A stretch of 64,000 nucleotides of DNA from an uncultured Actinomycetota bacterium (lineage in GTDB: Bacteria > Actinomycetota > Actinomycetes > JACCUZ01). Position 1 is the first letter of the stretch; each line of letters begins with the position of its first letter. This document shows positions 9,552 through 10,642 of this stretch, piece after piece. Made by a program: the position numbers and the translations under genes. A model generated the notes under the pieces. It was not told the DNA's origin and made no database searches. It saw only the letters and a program-made list of their open reading frames with translations. The stretch is from the NCBI GenBank assembly GCA_963794995.1, contig CAWCFV010000002.1, positions 2,954,722 through 3,018,721 of the forward strand, written 5' to 3'.

Positions 9552-10097
9552 GTGACCCGGCGCAACAGGCTCATGGTGACCCGCGCACGCCGGCGCGGCC
9601 TCGCAGCGTTGGGAGCCGCCGCCCTCGGCCTGCTGGCCCTGGTGGCCGGCGCTCCGGGCGCCCAGGCGGCCGCCCCCGCCGGGTCGATCACGCCGTTCGT
9701 CAGCTGCTACTTCGACAACGGGAACGGCACGTACACCGTCAGCGTCGGGTACACGAGCAGCAACAGCGGCACGGTGAGCATCCCGGTCGGTACGGACAAC
9801 CGGGTCACCTTCGGCGCACAGGACCGCGGCCAGCCGACCTCGTTCGCGCCCGGCGTCCACAGCAACGTGTGGGCACCGACCCTGTCCACCACGGACATCT
9901 ACAACAACGTGAACTGGTCGCTGACCGGCAACACGGTGCGGCTGAGCACCCTGAACCAGTGCTCGATCCGGCCGGTGCCGGCCGGGGGCAACCTGGCCGC
10001 CGAGCTCGCGTTCGGCGCGGTCGTCACGACGGCGGGCGCCCTCGTGATGGGTGAGCGCCGTCGGCGTCGGGTCGCCTCCCCGGGAGGCACCCTGTGA
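9552..10097 (+). CDS. secreted beta-rich protein with C-terminal sorting-signal-like anchor (candidate exosortase substrate 1)
   Basis: AGGAG RBS at 9541; signal peptide ...[29 protein letters not shown]; core PFVSCYFDNGNGTYT...DRGQPTSFAPG; ends CSIRPVPAGG + hydrophobic helix + ERRRRR. Confidence 0.8.
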   Translation: MTRRNRLMVTRARRRGLAALGAAALGLLALVAGAPGAQAAAPAGSITPFVSCYFDNGNGTYTVSVGYTSSNSGTVSIPVGTDNRVTFGAQDRGQPTSFAPGVHSNVWAPTLSTTDIYNNVNWSLTGNTVRLSTLNQCSIRPVPAGGNLAAELAFGAVVTTAGALVMGERRRRRVASPGGTL

Positions 10098-10642
10098 CCC
10101 CCGCGCGCCGACCGCTGCGGTGGTTGGCACGCCGCCTGGCGACCGCCGCCGCGGTCGGTGCCGTGCTCGCAGGCGGCGTCGTGGGAGCGGCTCCGGCGTG
10201 GGCGGCGACGATCGACTGCACGCCGATGGGCGACCCGGCCTGCCGGGACCTGGCGCCGGTCGCCGAGTGCGTCTGGGACAACAAGGACGGCACCAAGACG
10301 GCGCTGTGGGGATGGGACAACCCCAGCACCTCCACCCTGCGCATCGACGTCGGCAACAAGAACAAGATGTCACCCGGCGCCGAGGACCAGGGCCAGCCGA
10401 CCCTGTTCCTCCCGGGGCGGACGCGCAACGTGTTCACCACGACGTACACCGGGACGTCCACGACCTGGCGGCTGGGCAACGAGACGGCCACGGCCGGCTC
10501 CGGCACCACCGCCTGCTCGACCAAGCCGGTCTCCCAGATCGGCAGCGTCGGCGTCCTGCTGCTCGCTGTTCTCGTGCTCGTCCTCACCTCGGCGCTCGCG
10601 CTCGTCGCGCGGCCGCGCCGGTCACCTGTGGAGGTCCGATGA
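10094..10642 (+). CDS. paralogous secreted protein with C-terminal sorting-signal-like anchor (candidate exosortase substrate 2)
   Basis: GTGA overlap; signal peptide ending AAPAWA; core PVAECVWDNKDGTKT...DQGQPTLFLPG; ends CSTKPVSQIG + VGVLLLAVLVLVLTSALALVA + RPRR. Confidence 0.82.
   Translation: MTPARRPLRWLARRLATAAAVGAVLAGGVVGAAPAWAATIDCTPMGDPACRDLAPVAECVWDNKDGTKTALWGWDNPSTSTLRIDVGNKNKMSPGAEDQGQPTLFLPGRTRNVFTTTYTGTSTTWRLGNETATAGSGTTACSTKPVSQIGSVGVLLLAVLVLVLTSALALVARPRRSPVEVR

Follow-up and report, generated by a model that had tools for sequence, protein, structure and literature searches.

More than 20 exosortase and archaeosortase subfamilies have been named, each with its own sorting signal. 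The present work concerns a small exosortase and two secreted proteins, t1 and t2, encoded 2.1 kb upstream of it, in a 64,000-nucleotide stretch of DNA from an uncultured Actinomycetota bacterium (positions 2,954,722 to 3,018,721 of contig CAWCFV010000002.1, assembly GCA_963794995.1; hereafter, the window). An earlier note on this DNA had proposed that both proteins end in a sorting signal, C-S-x-[RK]-P-V-x-x-x-G followed by a transmembrane (TM) helix and an Arg cluster, that is recognized by the neighboring exosortase. Comparative sequence analysis suggests that t1 and t2 probably are dedicated substrates of this enzyme, with a signal that is best written in a different form.

NCBIfam represents the small exosortases XrtP, XrtR, XrtS, and XrtX. 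The XrtS (NF033767) system, as found in genome G238, consists of a choice-of-anchor G protein with a PVV-CTERM tail (NF051874, NF033766; 53.6 bits on PVV_CTERM), a GT2 glycosyltransferase (NF053846; 629 bits), and XrtS itself (194 bits). It is also actinobacterial and resembles the window locus in the translational coupling of a small exosortase (155 to 200 amino acids) with a membrane GT2 and in the secreted, tripartite-tailed protein encoded just upstream. However, the window enzyme reaches only 41.1 bits on the XrtS model (cut-off 145), as well as 22.6 on XrtR (cut-off 150) and 20.5 on XrtX (cut-off 170), and is not matched by the XrtP model at E = 0.01; orthologs from the families f6 and f30 score 38 to 50 bits on XrtS. 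The window GT2 scores 81 bits on NF053846 (cut-off 520), the target family is a different one, and the window cassette additionally encodes a PIG-L deacetylase, a TM-HEAT-ATP-grasp protein, and WecB. PVV-CTERM (cut-off 27 bits) gave no match at E up to 10 in six tails (both window tails, three f6/f30 homologs, and a variant from G062), while a control tail scored 60.1 bits.

The PEP-CTERM/exosortase A (XrtA, EpsH) system is like that of the window in its location in a polysaccharide locus and in a signal whose motif contains Pro, directly adjoins the helix, and is accompanied by an Arg cluster (10.1101/2023.06.07.544157). It is a one-to-many system serving unrelated proteins in Gram-negative bacteria, whereas the window system serves one to four proteins of a single family; the window enzyme is ~100 amino acids shorter than XrtA, and the PEP_CTERM model is unmatched on the window tails. 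The host phylum generally lacks an outer membrane. Within the superfamily, direct evidence that the C-terminal helix is removed and a new anchor attached is practically limited to archaeosortase A, which has a Cys/Arg/His triad in common with the window enzyme (10.1101/2023.06.07.544157). The PGF-CTERM/archaeosortase A system differs in being archaeal and in its lipid acceptor, its motif, and its many substrates. JDVT-CTERM/MrtJ is similar in its adjacent enzyme and target genes and in a signal confined to one target family (10.1101/2023.06.07.544157, in part), but its enzyme is a CPBP protease, not an exosortase, and a Cys belongs to its signal. The layout of the window locus is therefore a known theme, while none of its parts, whether enzyme, GT2, target family, or tail, reaches the model that would correspond to it. 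We consider it likely, from these comparisons, that the locus represents a previously unnamed enzyme-target pair, a dedicated exosortase and signal in Actinomycetota of a kind known in other bacteria. A literature search that excluded supplements and subscription papers returned no paper on XrtS, XrtR, or XrtX and none joining “exosortase,” “Actinobacteria,” and “sorting signal,” and an earlier mention is possible.

Two Tandem Secreted Proteins with a Common Architecture

Following thrB and rho, the high-GC actinobacterial window carries two tandem plus-strand open reading frames (ORFs), t1 and t2, the stop codon of the first being overlapped by the start of the second (Table 1); a GTG at 9552, upstream of the ATG at 9573, is a possible alternative start of t1. 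Both proteins have a signal-like N terminus, a Cys-bounded Ig-like domain of ~90 residues, and a C-terminal tail. At the N terminus, basic residues precede a hydrophobic segment and an A-x-A, as judged by eye and from hydropathy. A hydropathy scan found in each protein this N-terminal segment and a single C-terminal helix, which in t2 (residues 154 to 172) reaches 3.01 on the Kyte-Doolittle scale in 19-residue windows. The C-terminal end of t1 reads LNQCSIRPVPAGGNLAAELAFGAVVTTAGALVMGERRRRRVASPGGTL, with the Cys codon at 9960, and that of t2 reads TTACSTKPVSQIGSVGVLLLAVLVLVLTSALALVARPRRSPVEVR, with the Cys codon at 10514. Both ORFs exist as the earlier note described them, with the same tripartite layout at their ends; its coordinates are those of the Cys codons, although the text that it quoted begins one codon earlier, with Q or A.

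The two proteins are full-length paralogs of each other (33% identity, E = 3e-16), so the likeness of the tails is real but does not amount to two independent observations. No Pfam or NCBIfam model matched either protein, and public records label the targets “hypothetical protein.” The statement that neither contains LPXTG holds, since a regular expression for L[PA]xTG was negative in both, and a reading of t1 and t2 as sortase (LPXTG/LAXTG) substrates is ruled out by the absence of this motif. The PEP-CTERM, VPLPA-CTERM, MYXO-CTERM, GPS-CTERM, and LPXTG anchor models likewise put no window tail above cut-off: GPS-CTERM gave 7.7 bits and MYXO-CTERM 7.5 bits (E 4 to 6.6), with no stretch passing, and a single homolog tail scored 14.2 bits on LPXTG_anchor (cut-off 15.9) through its helix portion only.

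Conservation of the Motif Adjoining the Helix

A search of 5.8 billion proteins yielded 59 relatives of t2 with 49 to 71% identity, all of which have the same end layout except one incomplete entry. Homologs from three taxonomic families, without those of three unpublished genomes, gave 47 distinct full-length sequences on which conservation was scored. The P-V...G core, whose conservation the earlier note had put up for scrutiny, is well kept: P145 is found in 40, V146 in 43, and G150 in 42 of the 47 homologs, preceded by K144 (31/47) and followed by N, S, or D at position 151 (45/47). The basic cluster opens with R173 (46/47), and the next three positions are Arg in 25, 34, and 31 homologs; the helix between motif and cluster is variable. 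For comparison, the domain core residues N63 and W125 are present in 45/47 and 46/47, so that in this alignment P, V, G, and the first Arg are about as conserved as the domain core. In t1 and t2 the motif starts 39 to 44 residues before the C terminus, and it does likewise in the homologs. One unusually large homolog, P0080 (382 amino acids), has a second domain of ~170 residues inserted within the Cys-bounded domain and the same tail, C-P-S-K-P-V-P-V-I-G-N.

The tails might be alike merely through the shared ancestry of tandem paralogs and through composition, with no functional meaning, given that t1 and t2 are paralogs and that high-GC genomes yield many ORF ends rich in Ala, Leu, Val, and Arg. 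This we find hardly credible. The conservation data contradict it, as the motif is kept in three families and in further classes at 30 to 60% overall identity, and a tail-only hidden Markov model (HMM) sets t1 and t2 apart from the other ORFs by ~10 orders of magnitude in E-value. Among the 32,767 ORFs of at least 50 amino acids in the window's genome, this HMM retrieved only t2 (E = 1.3e-14) and t1 (E = 3e-11), the next value being 0.098.

The P-V...G part of the proposed consensus is borne out by these counts, while its flanks require revision. One paralog group has C-P-T-T-T-V-T-A-E-G-N and some t2 orthologs have C-A-G-H-Q-V-T-M-V-G, so [RK]-P is common and not obligatory. The Cys has also to be removed, as it closes the Ig-like domain and is probably no part of the signal. 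C141 is invariant (47/47), as is the first Cys of the domain (47/47); copies of the domain that lack a tail and lie in larger proteins stop exactly at this Cys (G215, G726), and in a repeat protein of G086 two Cys bracket three of the four repeats. Because the Cys is co-invariant with the first domain Cys and ends the tail-less copies, we assign it to the domain, to which the residue after it probably belongs too. The signal proper would be better written [KRN]-P-V-[PS]-x-x-G-[NSD], abutting the helix.

The same observations bear on the possibility that the signal is of the Cys type seen in MYXO-CTERM and JDVT-CTERM and is handled not by the exosortase but by a different enzyme, such as an intramembrane protease of the CPBP family. 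An invariant Cys does stand nine residues ahead of the helix and its Arg cluster, and Cys-containing tripartite signals exist, as reported in part of 10.1101/2023.06.07.544157. The structural assignment of the Cys, the noise-level scores of the MYXO-CTERM and GPS-CTERM models, and the absence of any CPBP match among the conserved cassette genes (Pfam and NCBIfam; CPBP genes elsewhere were not profiled) make such a signal very improbable.

An AlphaFold2 model of t2 (pLDDT 88.4) consists of an N-terminal helix, a beta-sandwich at residues 39 to 134, and a C-terminal helix at 152 to 172. Foldseek found nothing in the PDB at E up to 0.001 with this model, and in VIA-align wide the best Z was 6.7 (transglutaminase beta-barrel and GH2 Ig-like domains), in a range that the tool calls common. 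The predicted fold can be termed an Ig-like beta-sandwich, without a functional lead; in the ESM Atlas only unnamed actinobacterial clusters matched.

A Small Exosortase Downstream of the Targets

The neighboring exosortase invoked in the earlier note is real. The product of 12751-13284 exceeds the cut-offs of both TIGR04178 (39.5 bits against 23) and PF09721 (26.5 bits against 25.7), and its gene is the sole exosortase-family gene of the genome. Public records label the enzyme just “exosortase/archaeosortase family protein”; the carriers named by such sources include Acidothermus and Sporichthyaceae. Cys75, Asn114, Arg117, and His137 are invariant in 14/14 orthologs and, by hydropathy and the positive-inside rule, would lie at the outer membrane face. 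From their position in the TIGR04178 match and the motifs of the family, we take Cys75, Arg117, and His137 to be the triad. Cys, Arg, and His form the putative catalytic triad of the exosortase/archaeosortase family, according to parts of 10.1101/2023.06.07.544157. A complex prediction from exosortase and tail alignments, run without controls, returned a score of 0.00 and counts neither way. The cytoplasmic C terminus of the enzyme, R-A-A-R-V-S-D-V-L (13258-13284), is invariant in 14/14 orthologs, beyond most of the protein, and might serve as a docking peptide, with the GT2 or the ATP-grasp protein among the conceivable partners.

Co-occurrence of Exosortase and Target Family

In a sample of 39 genomes from the window's taxonomic family, 19 have the exosortase, and 18 of these 19, but no other genome, have the target family; in the sole enzyme-only genome (G034), the enzyme gene lies 1.5 kb from a contig end. 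Among 401 genomes of the class, the exosortase was found in 24 (plus a weak match in G100, E = 1.5e-4), every one of which has the target family (24/24). TIGR04178 genes of any type are uncommon in the class, being present in 33 of 299 genomes, 23 of which belong to the systems described here. Genome G022, a member of the window's family, is without cassette and target family and has another long exosortase-family gene (TIGR04178 55 bits).

The target lies 2 to 3 kb upstream of the exosortase in 18/18 family genomes and in 8/8 loci from metagenome-assembled genomes, the latter having been retrieved by one narrow peptide pattern and all being of the cassette type. The family f30 is arranged differently. 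Enzyme and target are both present in the same 6 of its 18 genomes, and in three loci examined (G127, G067, G102) rho is followed by the cassette with no adjacent target gene. In G067 and G127 the targets are at a distance of at least ~129 kb or on a separate contig, beside unrelated housekeeping genes, and those of G102 and G149 are on contigs other than that of the cassette; G369 is an exception, with its targets still close to the cassette. Since the unlinked targets of f30 still track the enzyme, gene linkage alone is insufficient to account for the co-occurrence.

Three of the genomes used are unpublished: G068 (one of the four long-exosortase cases, see below), G288 (one of the six f30 genomes), and G037 (one of the 19 in the family sample and one row of the alignment A2). 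The conclusions stand without them.

Tailed Homologs Beside Long Exosortases

Six class genomes have a match to the domain and none to the small exosortase (G062, G068, G086, G099, G215, and, weakly, G117), and a phylum sample of 401 genomes added four further genomes with the domain (G518, G746, G690, G726). In G062 and G068 the homolog has a full tail, and its gene is directly upstream of a long exosortase followed by another glycosyltransferase. G518 and G746, from other classes, also have a tailed homolog directly upstream of a long exosortase. All four long exosortases have ~500 to 600 amino acids and score 38.6 to 44.1 bits on TIGR04178, and the motifs beside them are variants: x-A-V-V-A-E-S or P-P-V-V-A-E-S in G062 and G068, and, in the set as a whole, also QPAVPDVP and NPVPVAAS. 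Conversely, the domain is tail-less in G086, G099, G215, G690, and the weak match G117, genomes without a TIGR04178 match; in G726 it is part of a giant protein, and that genome has exosortases at other loci. The tail is hence not common in genomes that lack an exosortase, which the earlier note had named as an outcome that would speak against its proposal: tailed homologs are found only where an exosortase-family gene exists.

An hhalign comparison of the small exosortase with one long exosortase, in which the N-x-x-R and H motifs align, gave a probability of 0.1 and is not evidence. The long exosortases of G068 and G062 (loci L108 and L109) have a large additional C-terminal region beyond the catalytic core and reached no named Xrt subfamily model (best XrtA, 35.6 bits; XrtT, 22 to 23 bits). 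The G068 locus also lies directly after rho, like the small-exosortase cassette.

Sorting Signal or Membrane Anchor

Section 5 of 10.1101/2023.06.07.544157 lists eight attributes of tripartite sorting signals and, as an alternative for dedicated systems, the regular occurrence of enzyme and target in consecutive or nearby genes. Set against that section, the window tails show the C-terminal position, the conserved motif, the hydrophobic helix, and a basic cluster of two to five mostly Arg residues. Homologs elsewhere are either tail-less (G086, G215, G690, G726) or variant-tailed (G062, G068, G518, G746), another of the attributes given there. The sharing of a signal by unrelated proteins, also listed in that section, was not seen, the tail-only profile retrieving a single domain family. 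The proximity of genes described there for dedicated systems was seen with both the small and the long exosortases.

In five other genomes, all 12 strong tail matches (E = 1.4e-8 or better) belong to the same protein family. Among 1.84 billion representatives there were 30 tail matches at E up to 0.001, of which 22 have the domain; the other eight are seven fragments (49 to 91 amino acids) and one spurious eukaryote-like membrane protein. The number of targets per genome ranges from one to four (two in G000, three in G010, four in G043), all of them paralogs. Because these searches brought up the tail in this protein family alone, we regard the system as dedicated; with the tail in one family only, modularity does not separate a sorting signal from a conserved C-terminal anchor.

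The tail could thus be an ordinary, uncleaved membrane anchor, in which case t1 and t2 would be type I membrane proteins acting alongside the polysaccharide machinery, perhaps by binding the polymer or organizing it at the membrane; P-V...G would be a juxtamembrane structural or interaction element, and the exosortase would act elsewhere or nonproteolytically. The confinement of the tail to one family and the structural role of the invariant Cys agree with this, and with the same cassette in most of the genomes, co-occurrence is expected of any functional partner. A plain anchor explains less well why the motif residues are as conserved as the fold core while the helix is free to vary, and why the motif abuts the helix without a spacer, as it does in signals for membrane-embedded enzymes (10.1101/2023.06.07.544157, in part). 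Nor would it readily account for the pairing of the target family with two very different exosortase architectures, the motif changing accordingly, for the unlinked target copies that track the enzyme, or for the lack of any other tripartite-tail substrate candidate in the window's genome, as searched with the tail HMM. We regard an uncleaved anchor as possible and rather unlikely, and the only alternative of real weight.

Several points weigh against dedicated processing of t1 and t2 by the exosortase. No second protein family with the tail was found, in five further genomes or among the 1.84 billion representatives. The C-terminal helix of t1 (residues 141 to 159) is weak, with 1.78 in the same Kyte-Doolittle scan, and includes a Glu. 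In f30, 6 genomes with the pair and 12 without could reflect a single gain or loss among kin, and in f1 and f6, where the targets lie within the cassette, co-occurrence may be mere operon inheritance. Long exosortases beside a tailed homolog were seen in only four genomes, of which G068 is unpublished. Frame splits interrupt PIG-L and the HEAT-ATP-grasp gene in the window (see below); should they be genuine, this strain may have a cassette that is not fully functional. Finally, cleavage of the targets and the enzymatic activity of small exosortases in general are putative.

On balance, the idea that the neighboring exosortase recognizes the motif is supported in part, with conservation and co-occurrence in its favor and no existing model fitting the tail; the Cys, the obligatory [RK]-P, and portability among proteins have to be given up, and cleavage is presumed. 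What carries it are direct observations of the architecture, of motif conservation, of co-occurrence with and without linkage, of motif and exosortase type varying together, and of the catalytic residues.

Proposed Mechanism and Acceptor

Export, topology, cleavage, and the acceptor are steps that we infer. t1 and t2 would be exported via the N-terminal signal peptide, and the Cys-bounded Ig-like domain would fold outside the membrane, with the C-terminal helix holding the protein in the membrane and the Arg cluster on the cytoplasmic side. At the outer end of the helix, [KRN]-P-V-[PS]-x-x-G-[NSD] would meet Cys75, Arg117, and His137 of the exosortase, residues situated where the helices of the enzyme end on the outer side. 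The exosortase would then remove the helix and the Arg cluster and, by analogy with sortase and archaeosortase A, hand the new C terminus to an acceptor.

Because the cassette consists of a PIG-L deacetylase, a processive GT2, the exosortase, a TM-HEAT-ATP-grasp protein, and WecB, the acceptor is suggested to be an N-acetylhexosamine (HexNAc) polymer or linked to one, and the HexNAc product of the cassette is probably related to the acceptor that receives t1 and t2. It is tempting to go further and see the cassette as a self-contained machine for protein-to-polysaccharide ligation in a bacterium without an outer membrane, which at present we judge unlikely. GT2 and WecB would make the HexNAc polymer, sugar amines would be unmasked by PIG-L, and an amino-acid handle may come from the membrane-anchored ATP-grasp protein; the exosortase would transfer the C-terminal carbonyl of the target, cut at P-V-x-x-x-G, onto the amine, as a counterpart of sortase and lipid II. 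If this were so, it would be the first defined acceptor of any bacterial exosortase, with one enzyme and one to four substrates, and one substrate family with two unrelated-looking exosortase architectures would constitute a natural experiment on signal reading.

The system bears on the nature of the acceptors used by bacterial exosortases. Its simplicity is unusual, a single 178-amino-acid enzyme being paired with one family of small substrates that has one to four members per genome, and makes it a tractable model, in which the constant set of six cassette genes hints at the likely chemistry of the acceptor. A few hundred Actinomycetota “hypothetical proteins” and generic exosortases could be renamed as a cognate pair.

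The Cassette and Its Split Genes

The order rho, targets (when adjacent), PIG-L, GT2, exosortase, HEAT-ATP-grasp protein, WecB was found in all related loci examined. The GT2 stop and exosortase start codons overlap in ATGA. The GT2 falls below the cut-offs of both PgaC_IcaA (133.9 bits, cut-off 422.3) and the XrtP-associated glycosyltransferase model (81 bits, cut-off 520), and WecB is slightly below that of TIGR00236 (205.8 bits, cut-off 210.15).

Table 1. Features of the target genes and the exosortase cassette (positions in the window)
Feature	Coordinates	Strand	Basis
t1, secreted protein, 174 amino acids from ATG 9573	9573..10097	+	ORF call, t2 paralogy, hydropathy
t1 tail: C-S-I-R-P-V-P-A-G-G-N, weak TM helix, ERRRRR + 8 residues	9960..10097	+	tail HMM, hydropathy
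t2, secreted protein, 182 amino acids	10094..10642	+	ORF call, 59 homologs, AlphaFold2
t2 tail: C-S-T-K-P-V-S-Q-I-G-S, TM helix, RPRR + 6 residues	10514..10642	+	tail HMM, hydropathy
PIG-L/LmbE-type deacetylase	10639..11347	+	PF02585 on both pieces
Membrane GT2 glycosyltransferase, processive PgaC/NodC/cellulose-synthase type	11366..12754	+	NCBIfam, Pfam
Exosortase-family protein, 178 amino acids, four hydrophobic segments	12751..13287	+	TIGR04178, PF09721, hydropathy
Membrane-anchored HEAT-repeat + ATP-grasp protein, ~485 amino acids in relatives	13346..14834	+	NCBIfam, Pfam, relatives
WecB-type UDP-GlcNAc 2-epimerase, final conserved cassette gene	14935..16002	+	PF02350, 268 bits

PIG-L lies in two frames in the window (10639-10872 and 10832-11344) and in a single frame in relatives, comparison with which indicates one extra base near 10822-10832. 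The HEAT-repeat and ATP-grasp ORFs are also in different frames, with a break near 13740, while in the loci L106, L140, L141, and L143 they form one contiguous protein of about 485 to 495 amino acids. The serine hydroxymethyltransferase gene (glyA, 19771-21055) is frame-split as well (19771-20709 and 20717-21055). With three splits within ~10 kb of a two-contig assembly, indel errors are suggested rather than pseudogenes. A dead cassette was considered as an explanation of the PIG-L split and judged unlikely, since glyA and one further conserved gene in the vicinity show splits of this type as well.

XrtS-like Loci

XrtS and XrtS-like loci encoding a tailed protein, a GT2, and a small exosortase, in that order, were seen in G238 (L167, contig C2), G132 (L168, contig C12), and G292 (L169, contig C1). 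That of G132 consists of a 754-amino-acid Ig-like tailed protein, a GT2, an exosortase, and WecB, and the Ig-like protein ends in T-P-L-F-A-S-P-E, a helix, and RRRR, with 21 bits on PVV-CTERM, below cut-off. In G292 the exosortase is closely preceded by an ORF of 68 codons, whose product has a helix and ends in basic residues. The tails of G132 and G292 may be further unnamed signals.

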